From Gemmatimonadales bacterium (GTDB lineage Bacteria > Gemmatimonadota > Gemmatimonadetes > Gemmatimonadales > GWC2-71-9): DNA of 64,000 bases. The first letter of the stretch is position 1; each line of letters begins with the position of its first letter. Shown here piece after piece: positions 35,993-47,030 of this stretch. Under the pieces are notes generated by a model, which had not been told where the DNA came from, ran no database searches, and saw nothing but the letters and a program-made list of their open reading frames with translations. Position numbers and translations under genes: made by a program. Location: assembly GCA_036558125.1 (NCBI GenBank), contig DATBGE010000082.1:141374-205373 (forward strand), written 5' to 3'.

Positions 35993-38226
35993 TGACTGCT
36001 GACGCGTCTCGCCACCACCCCGATCACGATCAGGCCAGACATCTCACTGCGATCGCGGCACTGGTGCTGGGTGTCTTCCTCGGAATCACCCTTCTTCCTG
36101 TCTCCATCACCGGACCGTTCGGCAACTGGGTAGGTCACGCCCTATGGACCTTCCTCGGGATTGGTGCGCTTGGCTTCCCGCTCCTCGGCCTCGGCATCGG
36201 GCTCGCTGGATTTGACCGGCTTCCCCGGCTCGACATGAAGCGGGTCGCGGTTCTGGTAGTCGGTCTGAGCGTGGTCGTGCCGTTCCTGGTGGGCATCGTC
36301 ACCCATATCACTCCGCGCGACTTCGACGGACCCACCGTTCCGGCGCGGCTTACCGGATTCGGCCCGGGGATGATGGCCTACTACCTGTACGGCTGGATCG
36401 GTCCGGTGGGCGGATTTCTCCTGGGATTCTTTGCCCTCTCCGCGCTCACCATCATGACGATCGCGTGGCACCCGCTCAGCCGGCTGGCGGGCGGGTCTGG
36501 CGGGACGCTGACCCCCGTCGCTCGGGGAGCGGAGGCACCGATCGCCGTTGCAGGCGCCGGAGAGATCGAGGACGACGAGCCGGCGATCCTGCCTCCACCC
36601 CGCAGGGAACGCAAGCCAAAGAAAGCTGCGAAGGGCTCCACCGCTCCACCGCCCGACGCGAGCGATGAAGACGAATTGCCACCCATCGAACTGCTGGCGC
36701 CTCCCGCTGCGAAGGACACCGATGCGGGTGAGGCGCAGCTCGACCGGCTGGGTCAGGTCCTGCTCGAGACCCTCAAGACCTTCAAGGTTGACGGGACCAT
36801 CGCCGGAAGAACCACCGGGCCTGTGGTTACTCAGTTCGAGGTGGTGCCGGCGCCGGGGATCAAGGCCGGCCGGATCGCATCACTGGCGGACGATATGGCG
36901 ATGGCGATGCGGGCCCAGTCCATTCGTGTCGCACCGATCCCGGGCAAGGGAGCGGTCGGAGTCGAGATTCCCAACCCGACTGCTCGATTAGTCACGCTGC
37001 GGGAATTGCTCGAGGCTCCCGAATGGGAGATGAGTCGAGCCTCTCTTCCAGTGACCCTGGGTCGCGATCTCGAGGGGAAGCCGATCATCGCGGATCTCGC
37101 GAAGATGCCGCATCTCCTGATCGCTGGAGCGACTGGGACCGGCAAGTCCGTCGCGATCAACAGCATCATCACCAGCCTGATCTACCGCTACACTCCGAAG
37201 CAGCTTCGGCTCCTTATGGTGGACCCGAAGATGGTGGAGCTGTCGATGTACAACGCTCTGCCCCATCTCCGGCATGCGGTCGTCACCAACAACAACGACG
37301 CCGCTCGAGTGCTCAAGTGGGCGGTGTTCGAGATGAGCCGGCGTTACGAGCTGCTGCACGCCAATGGTGCCCGCAACCTGGGAGATTTCAACCGGAAAGT
37401 GGAGGAAGGGAAACCGCTCCGCCATCCGGCCAAACCGAAGCCCACGCTGACCAGCGTCAACGCCGAACCGCCGGACACGCCACCCGAGTTGCCGCTGGAA
37501 ATCGAATACCGGGACGGGCCGCTCCCCATCATCGTGATGATCGTGGACGAGCTGGCCGACCTGATGATGACGGTGCAGGGCGAGGTGGAGACCCCGCTCG
37601 CCATCCTCGCCCAGAAGGCGCGGGCGATCGGCATCCACATCATTCTGGCGACCCAGCGTCCGTCGGTGAACGTCCTGACCGGTCTCATCAAAGCGAACTT
37701 CCCCAGCCGGATCGCCTTTCGCGTCGCGTCCAAGGTGGACAGCCGGACCATCCTCGATCAGAACGGTGCCGAGGCGCTGCTCGGCAATGGCGACATGCTC
37801 TTCCTCCCGCCGGGGAAGAGTGAGCCGATGCGGTTGCAGGGTGCCTTCATCGCGACCGACGAGACCGAACGGGTGATGGATTGGTTCGAGAAGCGGCGGG
37901 AGGCTCGACGCGCGGTAGCGGCAGGCACCAGCCAGGAGCCGGACATCATCGAGCTGGTCCGGGCTCAGGAGCAGGCGGAGGAAGGTGGCGGCCCGGTGCA
38001 GTTCGAGGGCGAGCGCGACCCGTTATTCCGGGAGGCCGCCGAAGCGTGTGTTCAGAATCAGGGGGGATCCACCTCGTTACTTCAGCGCAAGCTCAAGATA
38101 GGTTATGGACGAGCGGCTCGGATCATCGACCAGCTGTACGAGGCGGGGATTCTCGGACCTCCGGACGGGAGCAAACCCCGCGACGTGCTCATCGGGATCG
38201 ATCAACTGGATGAGTATGCGGGGTAG
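35992..38226 (+). CDS. ftsK: DNA translocase FtsK/SpoIIIE
   Basis: Four or five N-terminal TM helices, a Pro-rich linker, motor domain (LLIAGATGTGKSV, IVMIVDELADL) and gamma winged helix (STSLLQRKLKIGYGRAARIIDQL). Confidence 0.92.
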   Translation: MTADASRHHPDHDQARHLTAIAALVLGVFLGITLLPVSITGPFGNWVGHALWTFLGIGALGFPLLGLGIGLAGFDRLPRLDMKRVAVLVVGLSVVVPFLVGIVTHITPRDFDGPTVPARLTGFGPGMMAYYLYGWIGPVGGFLLGFFALSALTIMTIAWHPLSRLAGGSGGTLTPVARGAEAPIAVAGAGEIEDDEPAILPPPRRERKPKKAAKGSTAPPPDASDEDELPPIELLAPPAAKDTDAGEAQLDRLGQVLLETLKTFKVDGTIAGRTTGPVVTQFEVVPAPGIKAGRIASLADDMAMAMRAQSIRVAPIPGKGAVGVEIPNPTARLVTLRELLEAPEWEMSRASLPVTLGRDLEGKPIIADLAKMPHLLIAGATGTGKSVAINSIITSLIYRYTPKQLRLLMVDPKMVELSMYNALPHLRHAVVTNNNDAARVLKWAVFEMSRRYELLHANGARNLGDFNRKVEEGKPLRHPAKPKPTLTSVNAEPPDTPPELPLEIEYRDGPLPIIVMIVDELADLMMTVQGEVETPLAILAQKARAIGIHIILATQRPSVNVLTGLIKANFPSRIAFRVASKVDSRTILDQNGAEALLGNGDMLFLPPGKSEPMRLQGAFIATDETERVMDWFEKRREARRAVAAGTSQEPDIIELVRAQEQAEEGGGPVQFEGERDPLFREAAEACVQNQGGSTSLLQRKLKIGYGRAARIIDQLYEAGILGPPDGSKPRDVLIGIDQLDEYAG

Positions 38227-38307
38227 CTGTTAGCCGTTAGCTGTTAGCTGTTAGCTGCTAGCTGTTAGCTATAGCGGTTGCCGTTTGCCGTTCACTGTTC
38301 GGTGTTT
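38224..38307 (+). repeat. Heptamer tandem array A: (TAGCTGT-like)x7 then (GCCGTTY-like)x5
   Basis: Read directly: tagctgt tagccgt tagctgt tagctgt tagctgc tagctgt tagctat agcggtt gccgttt gccgttc actgttc ggtgttt. The first TAG is the ftsK stop codon. Confidence 0.9.
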
Positions 38308-38378
38308 CCCGATCACATTCCCCGTCGATTTAGCCTCCGTAGTAGCCCCGCGTTCAATTGATTCAGTGGTGCGACAAG

Positions 38379-38822
38379 ATGATGAAAGCGGCGCACGGCC
38401 ACGGCGTAGCTTTGCCCACGATGACGCGCCGCTTCGTTCCGACTCGAGAATGGGAGGATGCCCGCCAGATTCGCGGACTCGAGGGTGAGCACACGGCGAT
38501 GGCGTATCTCACCTCCTGCGGCTGGTCCATCGAGGCCCATCGGTTCCGGCTGGGCCGCCATGATGTGGACTTGATCGCCCGGCGTGGCCATATCGTCGCG
38601 TTCATCGAGGTGAAGACTCGGCGGGGAACCGAATTCGGCTCGCCTGGTTCCGCGGTGGGGAGGCGCAAACAGGCTGCGATTGCGAAGGTCGCGGACATCT
38701 GGCGGATCCGGTTTGGCCACGCGGGGGATGAGTACCGGTTCGATGTGGTGGAGGTATCGGAGGAAAGCGGCGAGTCTCCCGCCATTAATCACATCGAGGA
38801 TGCTTGGCGGGTCCTGCGATAG
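38379..38822 (+). CDS. yraN: YraN-family endonuclease (UPF0102)
   Basis: GEHTAMAYL....GW........GRHDVDLIARRGHIVAFIEVKTRRG core. The start is ambiguous (38358 TTG, 38379 ATG or 38421 ATG). Confidence 0.75.
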   Translation: MMKAAHGHGVALPTMTRRFVPTREWEDARQIRGLEGEHTAMAYLTSCGWSIEAHRFRLGRHDVDLIARRGHIVAFIEVKTRRGTEFGSPGSAVGRRKQAAIAKVADIWRIRFGHAGDEYRFDVVEVSEESGESPAINHIEDAWRVLR

Positions 38823-38855
38823 GTTAGTGGATGAAAACAAGTCACAAATTCACTC

Positions 38856-45934: not shown

Positions 45935-45944
45935 TTGACCCCTC

Positions 45945-46907
45945 ATGATCCACCTCATCTTCACCGGCGGTACCATCTCGATGCAGCGCGATGCTGCGGC
46001 GGGCGGTAAGGTGCCCACCCTGGACGGTAAGGATCTGGTGAGCCTGGCGCCGGGGTTACGGGATTTGGCCCCGCTTGAGATCGACGATTGGGGTCGCTTC
46101 CCGGCCTGTCACATGGATCAGGCCAAGCTCTGGGAGCTGCGGGAACATGTGCGCCGTGTCGCCACCGTCTCGAAAGCCGCCGTACCTCCGAGTGGCATCG
46201 TCATCACTCACGGCACCGATACGATCGAAGAAACCGGATACCTCCTTGCCCGGACCCTCGATCTGAAACTGCCGATCGTCATTACGGGTGCGATGCTGAC
46301 GTCGGGGGATCCCGGCTGGGATGGGCCTCGCAACCTCACCGATGCCGTTCGAGTCGCCAGTAATGCGGGCAGCAAGGAACGCGGCGTGCTGGTCGCGTTT
46401 GCCGGCCAGGTCTTCGCCGCTCACCAGGCCGTGAAAACCCACACCTCCGATCTCGACGCTTTCTCGGCGCCGCATGCGGCGGCGTTGGGGACGGTCTCCG
46501 CGGCGGGTGTCGAGTATCAAGCGGCCGCGGCAAAGCCCAAGGCAGTTACTCCACCCGGACTGACGGCCCGCGTCGCGATGATTCCGGTGATCACAGGCGA
46601 CAATGGCGAGTTGCTCGATCGCGCCTTCCCCTCCTTCGACGGAGTCGTCGTAGTCGGCTACGGAACCGGCAACTGCCCACCGGGCATCCTCCCCGCCGTG
46701 CGGCGCTGGCTCGACGCCGGGAAGCCGGTAGTCCTGGCCAGTCGCTGCATCCGTGGCGAAGTGAGCGCGACCTACGCCTTCCCGGGAGCCGGTGGGGATC
46801 TGATCCGGATGGGCGTCTTGCCAGCCGGTCCCCGCGCTCCCTCTCAGGCGCGGATGGAGCTGGCGATTTGTTTGTCAGCAGGGGTGAGTTATGGGGTCAG
46901 GGAGTAG
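45945..46907 (+). CDS. L-asparaginase (type I-like)
   Basis: FTGGTISM and THGTDTIEETGYLL catalytic threonine motifs. Confidence 0.85.
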   Translation: MIHLIFTGGTISMQRDAAAGGKVPTLDGKDLVSLAPGLRDLAPLEIDDWGRFPACHMDQAKLWELREHVRRVATVSKAAVPPSGIVITHGTDTIEETGYLLARTLDLKLPIVITGAMLTSGDPGWDGPRNLTDAVRVASNAGSKERGVLVAFAGQVFAAHQAVKTHTSDLDAFSAPHAAALGTVSAAGVEYQAAAAKPKAVTPPGLTARVAMIPVITGDNGELLDRAFPSFDGVVVVGYGTGNCPPGILPAVRRWLDAGKPVVLASRCIRGEVSATYAFPGAGGDLIRMGVLPAGPRAPSQARMELAICLSAGVSYGVRE

Positions 46908-46932
46908 GGAATAGGGAGTAGGGTGTGGGTAT
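46900..46932 (+). repeat. Heptamer array D1: (GGGARTA-like), G-rich arm
   Basis: gggagta gggaata gggagta gggtgtg ggtat. It contains the asparaginase stop TAG at 46905-46907 and four GGG runs. Confidence 0.85.
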
Positions 46933-46982
46933 GGTGTGTGACGTGTAGTGGTGGGGATAAAGCAAAGATCTGAAGGGCCTCG

Positions 46983-47030
46983 CCCTACTCCCTACAACCT
47001 ACGCCCTACCACCTATCTCCCTACTCCCTC
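46983..47030 (-). repeat. Heptamer array D2: (CCCTACN-like), C-rich arm, inverted relative to D1
   Basis: ccctact ccctaca acctacg ccctacc acctatc tccctac tccctc, the reverse complement of TAGGGAR-type units. Confidence 0.85.

Follow-up and report, generated by a model that had tools for sequence, protein, structure and literature searches.

We analysed a 64,000-nucleotide (nt) stretch of a Gemmatimonadales genome (GenBank assembly GCA_036558125.1, contig DATBGE010000082.1, positions 141,374 to 205,373; the whole stretch is referred to as the window), in which four genes run directly into tandem arrays of heptanucleotides. The open reading frames (ORFs) end at positions 38226 (ftsK), 40629 (recX), 45073 (gmhA) and 46907 (an asparaginase gene), and Pfam assigned FtsK, RecX, a SIS-domain (GmhA-like) protein and asparaginase to them. 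The arrays were called with Tandem Repeats Finder over the whole 64 kb and with a separate autocorrelation scan of periods 4-15, and the chance level for period-7 arrays was taken from 100 first-order Markov simulations of the window. Four arrays were observed versus 0.00 expected per simulated window, in line with the original prediction of strict period-7 arrays at these four gene ends. The scan of periods 4-15 over the 64 kb returned nothing beyond the period-7 tracts described here and their period-14 echoes, and at other positions arrays with a period of 4-12 all stayed below the threshold applied to the period-7 tracts. The arrays were confined to the 3' ends of the four genes, and every one was intergenic, while intergenic DNA makes up 10.7% of the window. 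The earlier statement that no such arrays occur elsewhere in the window held insofar as none was found beyond these gene ends, but it had missed three partner arrays (40695-40721, 40752-40776 and 46983-47029). Since the arrays were also recovered in independent assemblies of the Joint Genome Institute (JGI), they are not assembly artefacts. They were correctly set apart from CRISPR arrays, as the units are 7 nt long and contiguous, versus CRISPR repeats of 23-50 nt with unique spacers of comparable length.

The ftsK-end array (38224-38292; this and all further arrays are given on the + strand) is opened by the ftsK stop codon (TAG, 38224-38226) and consists of 6.7 copies of TAGCTGT and two of TTGCCGT, followed by a degenerate, GTTCACY-like tail to about 38316. 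The recX-end array, starting at 40622 or 40627 and ending at 40659, contains 4.7 copies of TAAGCCR, with the recX stop codon (TAA, 40627-40629) as the first triplet. Its reverse complement follows 36 nt downstream (TATGGCT/TACGGCT, 3.9 copies, 40695-40721; 27 nt, 89% complementary), and another 30 nt beyond lies a third array (GGCTTAW, 3.6 copies, 40752-40776), which is complementary to the recX 5' arm too and ends 12 nt upstream of a TATATT box (40789-40794) in front of the alaS ATG at 40801. The gmhA-end array (45064-45125, or 45073-45125 according to Tandem Repeats Finder) is built of seven to eight GGTGAAY units (7.6 copies), and the gmhA stop codon (TAG, 45071-45073) falls within a degenerate first or second unit. 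It is abutted by 4.3 copies of AACAGCT (45123-45152), the reverse complement of the ftsK-end unit. The asparaginase-end array is G-rich (GGGRRTA units, 46893-46929; Tandem Repeats Finder called 3.6 copies of AGGGAGT at 46899-46923) and takes in the stop codon (TAG, 46905-46907) together with the last two to four sense codons. An inverted partner array of 6.6 CCCTACN copies lies about 55 nt downstream (46983-47029) and ends 36 nt before the cca ATG (47066).

Relative to the array start, the stop codon was offset by 0 (ftsK), 0 or -5 (recX), about +2/-3 (gmhA) and -6 (asparaginase), so that all four stops lie inside the first array unit, as had been claimed. The genes flush with arrays ended in TAG or TAA in four of four cases versus 35% of the other genes. 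Some of the sense sequence may have been lost at these ends: FtsK was 2-7 residues and the asparaginase approximately 5 residues shorter than their orthologues, and the Asparaginase_C match of the window protein stopped at profile position 105 of 114. The units listed in the original prediction all carry a + strand stop triplet, as was stated there; the chance of this is 0.18-0.25 per random heptamer and approximately 2e-4 to 9e-4 for the five units. The partner-array units TATGGCT and CCCTACT, which represent two of the three partner arrays, lack one. The array-bearing spacers were 108-171 nt long and left 24-86 nt of free DNA between the arrays and the next start codon, which is the region of the promoter elements. 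The unit sequence changed from site to site while the period stayed at 7, which argues against a sequence-specific ligand. The ftsK-end (38224-38316) and gmhA-end (45068-45152) arrays are inverted copies of one composite, (GTTAGCT)n followed by GTTCACC-like units, and 45123-45152 is 97% complementary to 38237-38266 over 30 nt. These two composites flank a 6.85 kb block from yraN to gmhA. The order within this block is the same in relatives, which means that it is not an obvious mobile or invertible segment.

Folding potential of the four gene ends

Inverted partner arrays were present at the recX and asparaginase sites and absent from the ftsK and gmhA sites, and the earlier view of the arrays as unlike palindromic units was therefore wrong at two of the four sites. 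As RNA, the paired arrays were predicted to form stems of roughly 30-45 bp. The whole recX 3' hairpin (40621-40737) had a minimum free energy of -60.6 kcal/mol (z -7.0) and consists of the heptamer arms and an outer stem, in which CAGCGAUA pairs with GUCGCUG and which takes in the last recX codons. The whole asparaginase 3' hairpin (46899-47029) reached -75 kcal/mol (z -5.0), and none of 200 shuffles was as stable as the native sequence in either case. Among approximately 57 gene-end structures compared downstream of genes in the window, the asparaginase hairpin was the strongest (z -8.6 in this comparison) and the recX hairpin the second. The ftsK array folded weakly (z -1.7), and the gmhA array was essentially unstructured (z -0.6). 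A single 9 kb stretch thus shows both forms of the repeat, the unstructured single array and the inverted pair with a long hairpin. A small G+C-rich hairpin was located at the tip of every inverted pair examined. Ranking third among the 3'-downstream structures of the window (z -4.3) was a strong hairpin at 39993-40060, GGACCCGGATCCGGCTCGTGCCGGTTTTGTCCGGGTCC, situated just past the recA stop codon and inside the start of recX.

The asparaginase array (46893-46929) additionally contains six tracts of at least three guanines and matches the G-quadruplex (G4) motif, G3+N1-7 repeated at least four times; the candidate stretch reads AGGGAGTAGGGAATAGGGAGTAGGGTGTGGG. The other three sites have no G-tracts. 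A consensus scan for terminators identified no intrinsic terminator at the four gene ends, and the sequence after the stems is U-poor, with no U-tract. The consensus scan for promoters gave no sigma-70 match. The comparison of positions 37500-47500 with Rfam 15 yielded no family; plant miRNA hairpin models matched the asparaginase hairpin by chance, below the gathering score.

Related loci and near-identical contigs

RecA assigned the window to Gemmatimonadales, its best match (87%) being found in a metagenome-assembled genome. The gene order ftsK-yraN-recA-recX-alaS-orf-cpsB-gmhA-sdr-asparaginase-cca was common, wholly or partly, to 11 related Gemmatimonadota loci. Heptamer arrays at the four orthologous gene ends were found in 0 of these 11 loci, where the spacers measured approximately 8-60 nt. 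The missing arrays indicate recent, lineage-specific insertions that inflated short spacers, and argue against a conserved function as terminator, insulator or stop cassette. A conserved regulatory element was rejected as a candidate on the basis of the same 11 loci.

Variation within the population was assessed in near-identical contigs. Two metagenome contigs (L001 and L002) were 99.6-99.8% identical to the window, a 7-nt insertion counted, and their ftsK array contained one extra 7-nt unit and one C/T change, which agrees with the predicted polymorphism in unit number. A further contig (L203) was 99.84% identical to the window and carried one substitution in the GGTGAAY array and one in the adjoining AACAGCT array; two further differences flank the gmhA arrays (a substitution, and a substitution with a 1-nt deletion). 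No length change was observed at the recX, gmhA and asparaginase sites between the window and the contigs compared. The recX arrays were identical in L001 and L203, as was the asparaginase hairpin in L203. Altogether, the unpaired arrays accumulated 4 events in 157 nt versus 0.18 expected (P = 4e-5), which is roughly 20-fold faster than the surrounding DNA, and these population data mark single arrays as hypermutable. An exact-protein look-up of GmhA gave no match, probably owing to its GTG start, and the locus came from L203. A structural variant downstream of cpsB was considered and rejected, since the minus-strand ORF found there is a spurious antisense ORF inside gmhA, at a contig end.

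Several short-read contigs (JGI samples 3300043331 and 3300056388) begin or end in or beside heptamer arrays. This suggests that arrays break assemblies, through either polymorphism or copies of the same unit elsewhere in the genome. In practice, arrays interrupt assembly from short reads and can displace the 3' end assigned to a gene. Apart from the arrays, seven substitutions versus L203 were concentrated in 52 nt of the window (51278-51329), inside an HflX-like GTPase gene (50919-52232).

Tandem repeats at other positions were frequent in the relatives. In 229 kb of Gemmatimonadota loci, no intergenic tandem repeat was as frequent as the heptamers (10 of 20 by ORF calls, with several more heptamer arrays masked by spurious ORFs). 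One Gemmatimonadales locus (L010) contained a TAGACGG inverted pair (-82.5 kcal/mol) with the upstream stop codon in its first unit and its far end touching the next start codon, as well as a CCTCCGC array in front of alaS, six copies of a 12-nt unit beginning at the alaS stop codon (16084-16158) and 4.6 copies of an 11-nt unit located 12 nt after the gmhA stop codon (17740-17790). Arrays of other periods included 11.3 copies of an 18-nt unit filling the recX-alaS spacer of L008 (5464-5668), 2.9 copies of a 16-nt unit, composed of two 8-nt subunits, after recA in L003 (3028-3074), and a 14-nt array after recX in L004 (11728-11766). The recX-alaS spacer was occupied by arrays in the window, L010, L004 and L008 (periods 7, 7, 14 and 18).

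A TATATTC/TAGATTC box, ending about 6 nt upstream of the alaS ATG, was observed in 8 of 12 Gemmatimonadota loci (40789-40794 in the window; L003 and L005-L010), and the spacer arrays abut it in the window, L010 and L008. The conservation of this box suggests a putative leaderless-type alaS promoter. Upstream of recA, a direct-repeat motif, TTCG-N7/8-TTCGG, was conserved in all the Gemmatimonadota loci (approximately 38866-38882 in the window, ATTCGGTTAATATTCGG) and lay in reverse orientation in L011, L012 and L017. As judged from its sequence, this motif resembles an SOS (LexA) box of the GTTC-N7-GTTC type.

Heptamer arrays and stop codons at other loci

The association with stop codons was reproduced beyond the four sites, namely at a secA site, in other phyla and at metagenome and viral loci, which is the opposite of the outcome that the original prediction had named as refuting. 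In the same genome, approximately 8 kb beyond the left edge of the window, four copies of AAATTGM start 2 nt after the secA stop codon TGA (L241, 10253-10284); in total, five array sites were present in about 74 kb of this genome read, four of them within 9 kb. An unbiased set was provided by RecA loci from many phyla, picked without regard to the repeat unit, and about half of the heptamer sites in this set lay within 8 nt of a stop codon. These sites include a GATTTTT inverted pair in a Phycisphaera locus (L059) and arrays in Desulfuromonadales (L022) and Acidobacteriota (L041) loci; L010 has stop-flush elements as well. In another Gemmatimonadales locus (L005), which carried an inverted pair, the contig ends within the upstream gene.

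A metagenome scan for (GTTAGCT)3 yielded at least 120 contigs with a G+C content of 29 to 74%. Of 40 co-directional spacers, 20 had the array no more than 6 nt away from the stop codon, and 6 had it equally close to the start codon. The discordant counts were 17 stop-only versus 3 start-only (p = 0.003), an excess that held even though start calls in this comparison are biased towards the array. The sign test on which spacer end lies nearer to the array was not significant in co-directional spacers (22:17), only the flush-within-6-nt comparison being so. The clearest regularity concerned the rank of the stop codon. Across approximately 100 metagenome and viral loci, a gene's stop that lay inside the array was its first, second or third stop triplet in a ratio of 38:8:9, versus the 1:1:1 expected if ORFs simply ran into arrays (p = 1e-7); a stricter definition of the array edge gave 38:11:10. 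Simple slippage does not predict this rule, by which the array usually has the stop of the gene as its first stop triplet.

An inverted partner within 220 nt was detected for 29 of 120 metagenome arrays versus about 1% in controls. Where just one strand of the unit carried stops, it was the coding strand 11 times and the opposite strand twice; this bias disappeared for arrays beginning downstream of the stop codon, which makes the strand test largely circular. Of 23 stop-adjacent arrays whose units do not belong to the AACAGCT family, 8 contained no stop triplet on either strand. The AGCTGTT/AACAGCT arrays (loci L083-L202, G+C 29%-74%) were often composite, with GGCGTGA in L136, CGCCCCT in L150 and AGGGAAT-like units in L142. 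Some of them finish 0-8 nt short of a start codon, too close for a Shine-Dalgarno sequence to fit in between (L129, L147 and L125).

The densest arrangement was encountered in a viral contig (L224, positions 1-10370; IMGVR_UViG_3300021255_003533, of which L216 is a part), which represents a tailed-phage head module encoding a large terminase, a portal, a protease, a major head protein, a head closure protein and an endolysin. Hairpin elements of a single type were present at 9 of its 11 gene junctions. Each element starts with (TAGCTNT)4-5, whose first triplet is a TAG stop, and continues through a core (AAGTTACTTGCGCGCC..GGCGCGCAA), (AGCTAAN)4-5, a Shine-Dalgarno sequence and the start codon; at most junctions the first TAG of the element is the stop codon of the gene. 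The element folds at -44 kcal/mol. Relatives of this contig were not found in INPHARED by megablast, and tblastn gave one weak match with 17% coverage. An uncultivated phage with such elements at nearly every junction would offer a compact system for tests of function. Further uncultivated viral contigs (L204/L217, L215/L225, L219, L209 and L237; G+C 55-68%) contained 7-13 heptamer arrays per 10 kb, many of them starting at a stop codon, with the units TAGAAAT/TTGGAAA, AGCCGAT, GAAACTY and others. In IMG/VR as a whole, (GTTAGCT)3 was 3-6 times commoner than two composition-matched controls.

Origin of the arrays and their place among known repeats

On the sequence evidence, we lean, with moderate confidence, towards the view that the arrays are slippage-born heptanucleotide simple sequence repeats (SSRs), of the class that includes long SSRs, the short tandemly repeated repetitive (STRR) sequences, GGGNATC and TAACTGA repeats, seeded on or fused to stop codons. 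Replication slippage, recent in this Gemmatimonadales lineage, would have expanded short spacers. An array seeded on the upstream stop codon, or joined to it by microhomology, would carry the stop triplet as part of its unit. As such a unit contains a stop and its length of 7 is not divisible by 3, stops come up in all three frames as a side effect; the all-frame stops noted in the original prediction are arithmetically real but better explained in this way than by a selected cassette. The unpaired ftsK and gmhA arrays would be hypermutable, largely unstructured filler. At the recX and asparaginase sites, the array was presumably copied in inverted orientation across a small central hairpin, most likely by intra-strand template switching, which would extend quasi-palindromes outwards to a 30-45 bp stem in the 3' untranslated region. 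The G+C-rich hairpin at the tip of every pair fits such outward growth. In RNA, the long stem might hold back 3' exonucleases, be cut by an RNase III-type enzyme or serve as a weak terminator between separately promoted genes. The anatomy, the recent age, the polymorphism, the rule of position and the potential to fold are thereby shown, and slippage, template switching and any influence on RNA are inferred.

Several observations weigh against slippage as the whole explanation. The stop rank of 38:8:9 is too strong for slippage plus tolerance, and in convergent spacers, where no downstream promoter constrains the position, the array sat flush against one stop or the other in about 10 of 11 cases. 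The paired arrays showed 0 events in 441 nt, although with 0.5 expected this comparison has little power. The repeated phage element with its conserved core looks like selection or active propagation, not independent slippage, and provides the chief grounds for regarding some members of the class as selected or self-propagating. The crowding of four sites into 9 kb of 64 kb, with the ftsK and gmhA arrays being inverted copies, is likewise unaccounted for. Plain slippage thus does not account for the first-rank anchoring, the period of 7 or the phage case.

The strongest competitor, which we nevertheless regard as unlikely, is a selected RNA 3'-end module: the arrays, and the inverted pairs in particular, would be retained because a long stem beginning at the stop codon brings transcription to an end or a pause, impedes 3' exonucleases or is cleaved by RNase III. 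It would insulate the upstream gene from a separately promoted, leaderless-type downstream gene, with stem formation coupled to ribosome release. No gene in the window is followed by a stronger structure than the two pairs, which were invariant between contigs. The four sites lie at operon-like boundaries, while genes within operons overlap by 1-4 nt, and no ordinary intrinsic terminator serves these ends. Stop-flush hairpins precede the Shine-Dalgarno sequence and ATG at 9 of the 11 phage head-module junctions and recur in L010, L005 and L059. Precedents for RNA effects are available, as transcripts in Xanthomonas have their start or end at G4-capable repeats more frequently than at controls (PMC4692102) and a Haemophilus influenzae heptamer hairpin is an RNase III site (PMC12721329). 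However, none of the related species examined has the arrays at the orthologous gene ends, the stems lack a following U-tract, and the ftsK and gmhA sites cannot fold. Strong terminators at every junction of a phage late operon would be harmful, and about three quarters of the arrays in the wider sample have no inverted partner.

More doubtful still is a broader version, according to which stop-anchored, often paired heptamer arrays form a distinct and widespread class of elements in bacteria and phages, born at or targeted to the stop codon and kept or propagated because the hairpin would couple translation termination to mRNA processing or termination. It is suggested by the stop rank of 38:8:9 and the 9 of 11 junctions of the phage head module, as plain slippage explains neither.

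We consider it improbable that the arrays are the arms of a mobile or self-propagating hairpin element, such as a miniature inverted-repeat transposable element (MITE), a repetitive extragenic palindromic (REP) sequence or a palindrome-associated transposable element (PATE), that inserts at or recombines with stop codons. The nine phage junctions do share one element with a conserved core, in most of which the first TAG is the stop; arrays of the AGCTGTT family span G+C contents of 29 to 74% and are enriched in IMG/VR 3-6 times over the matched controls; and the stop is the first stop triplet far above chance. Nevertheless, the four window sites have different units, and the phage element, albeit multicopy, differs in sequence from the window hairpins. 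A BLAST search of the window and of 2.4 Mb of fetched loci detected each loop and flank sequence of the hairpins only once. No target-site duplications were seen, and Pfam revealed no transposase beside the arrays among nine neighbouring genes. The change by exactly one 7-nt unit is a signature of slippage. A MITE in particular was rejected, given that no second copy was found and no target-site duplication is visible at the element ends.

The three remaining alternatives are functional readings of the unit itself. HutP recognises UAG triplets spaced by 4 nt, and a multimeric RNA- or DNA-binding protein reading a 7-nt register in this manner, or one of the S1, Csp or CsrA type, could in principle use the arrays as a platform. 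The strict register and the several units made of UAG or UAA plus four variable bases are consistent with this, and binding of S1, Csp or CsrA was proposed by MacGregor for TAACTGA repeats (PMC4679880). Such a platform is very improbable, as the units differ between sites and genomes, GGTGAAC and AAATTGM contain neither UAG nor UAA, orthologous sites show no conservation, and no candidate protein emerged. We give even less credence to a G4 modulating transcription or translation, which would concern the asparaginase site only and has been proposed for Xanthomonas GGGAATC. The six G-tracts of at least three guanines with 4-nt loops at 46893-46929 extend over the stop, and the preference for four units, the stop-codon position and the inverted pairing match the published case (PMC4692102); yet the complementary arm 50 nt downstream would compete by forming a -75 kcal/mol duplex, the other three sites have no G-tracts, and no function has been established even in Xanthomonas (PMC4692102). 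Least credible of all is an all-frame translational stop cassette catching read-through or frameshifted ribosomes at gene ends: the stops in all five listed units (P of approximately 2e-4 to 9e-4) and the 11 versus 2 strand counts speak for it, but the strand bias vanishes downstream of the stop, three units would suffice where the window arrays have 4-8 and others as many as 17 or more, stops are missing from both strands in 8 of the 23 stop-adjacent arrays not of the AACAGCT family, orthologues have no arrays, and the property has been published as a constraint, not a function (PMC4679880).

The slippage-born SSR remains the reading that we favour, and it agrees with the comparison with known repeats. 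Mrazek et al. (2007), as summarised in PMC4679880, described heptanucleotides as the most abundant long-unit SSRs, typical of large, high-G+C genomes, and proposed polymerase slippage as their source. The window arrays resemble these long SSRs (5-11 nt units; Mrazek, Guo and Shah 2007), which according to PMC4679880 and PMC4692102 are most commonly heptanucleotides and are typically located in the intergenic DNA of large, high-G+C genomes of non-pathogens. They consist of tandem 7-nt units beyond chance, are non-coding, and at ftsK differ between strains by a 7-nt copy step, which places them among the heptanucleotide long SSRs. The summaries of the 2007 survey in PMC4679880 and PMC4692102 do not mention stop-codon anchoring or inverted pairing.

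Both properties were described for the GGGAATC and GGGGA(C/T)T heptamers of Xanthomonas and Nostoc (Rehm et al. 2015, PMC4692102), which are intergenic and for which no function was found. These repeats prefer the sense strand, where they overlap a stop codon or come within 50 nt of one; each genome has 70-75 convergent inverted pairs, four units are preferred, and the length varies between species (PMC4692102). The window arrays share with them the high-G+C host, the intergenic 7-nt units at stop codons, the inverted pairs, the approximately four units and the length variation, and the asparaginase units GGGAATA/GGGAGTA almost equal the Xanthomonas GGGAATC, GGGAATA being one base off. They differ in their Gemmatimonadota host and in that one of the four sites only is G-rich, while TAGCTGT, TAAGCCG and GGTGAAC cannot form a G4. 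Consistently, the combination typical of G4-type GGGNATC repeats, i.e., at least four G-tracts of three or more guanines, a sense-strand position over the stop and an inverted partner, was found at the asparaginase site only. Furthermore, 83% of the Xanthomonas repeats keep their gene context between two species, whereas none of the window arrays was shared with the related species sampled.

The STRR sequences of heterocystous cyanobacteria, named as the nearest analogue in the original prediction, turned out to be less close than the TAACTGA repeats, whose all-frame stops had already been noted (PMC4679880). The latter form arrays in marine Beggiatoaceae, cyanobacteria and Bacteroidetes, and forward repeats stop all three frames and hence overlap only the ends of ORFs, which MacGregor (2015) treated as a constraint rather than a function (PMC4679880). 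Like the window arrays, they show all-frame stops, lie in some cases over the upstream stop codon, differ by 7-nt insertions or deletions between strains and are mixed with other heptamers. In contrast, the repeats of "Maribeggiatoa" have one dominant unit and are located mostly 1-40 nt upstream of start codons, whereas the arrays described here have many units and are flush with stops. The STRR sequences, including the Calothrix PCC 7601 heptanucleotides cited in PMC4692102, are likewise intergenic tandem heptamers of several unit types. They belong to an unrelated lineage with unrelated unit sequences and bear a lineage-specific name; the window arrays, with a Gemmatimonadales host and the units TAGCTGT, TAAGCCG, GGTGAAC, AACAGCT and AGGGAGT, are therefore an analogue and not a member. 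Literature searches on STRR and on heptamers in Gemmatimonadetes found nothing.

Structured repeats offered partial parallels. The (ATCTTTC)n repeat of H. influenzae hmw is a heptameric SSR in a long 5' untranslated hairpin that is cleaved by RNase III (PMC12721329). It is transcribed, likewise changes in copy number and forms one arm of a long RNA hairpin. Unlike the window pairs, it is situated in a 5' untranslated region, controls a phase-variable adhesin and has a G-rich region instead of an inverted array as the right arm; the window sites involve no phase-variable gene. The recX and asparaginase elements also resemble REP sequences and bacterial interspersed mosaic elements (BIMEs) in being large imperfect palindromes in 3' intergenic DNA, which would stabilise or end transcripts likewise. 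They differ from REP/BIME elements in that the arms of the two hairpins share no consensus and are 7-nt periodic, no dispersed copies were found and Pfam identified no REP-associated tyrosine transposase (RAYT) among the nine neighbouring genes. Geobacter metallireducens possesses multicopy elements of four or five tandem heptanucleotides, considered putative regulatory elements (PMC2700814), to which the window arrays are similar as multicopy heptamer arrays; unlike the latter, those elements have a fixed copy number and a consensus across 16-49 sites and also occur inside genes. Taken together, the stop overlap, the all-frame stops and the inverted pairs all have published precedents, and the window arrays extend the known class of heptamer repeats to Gemmatimonadota.

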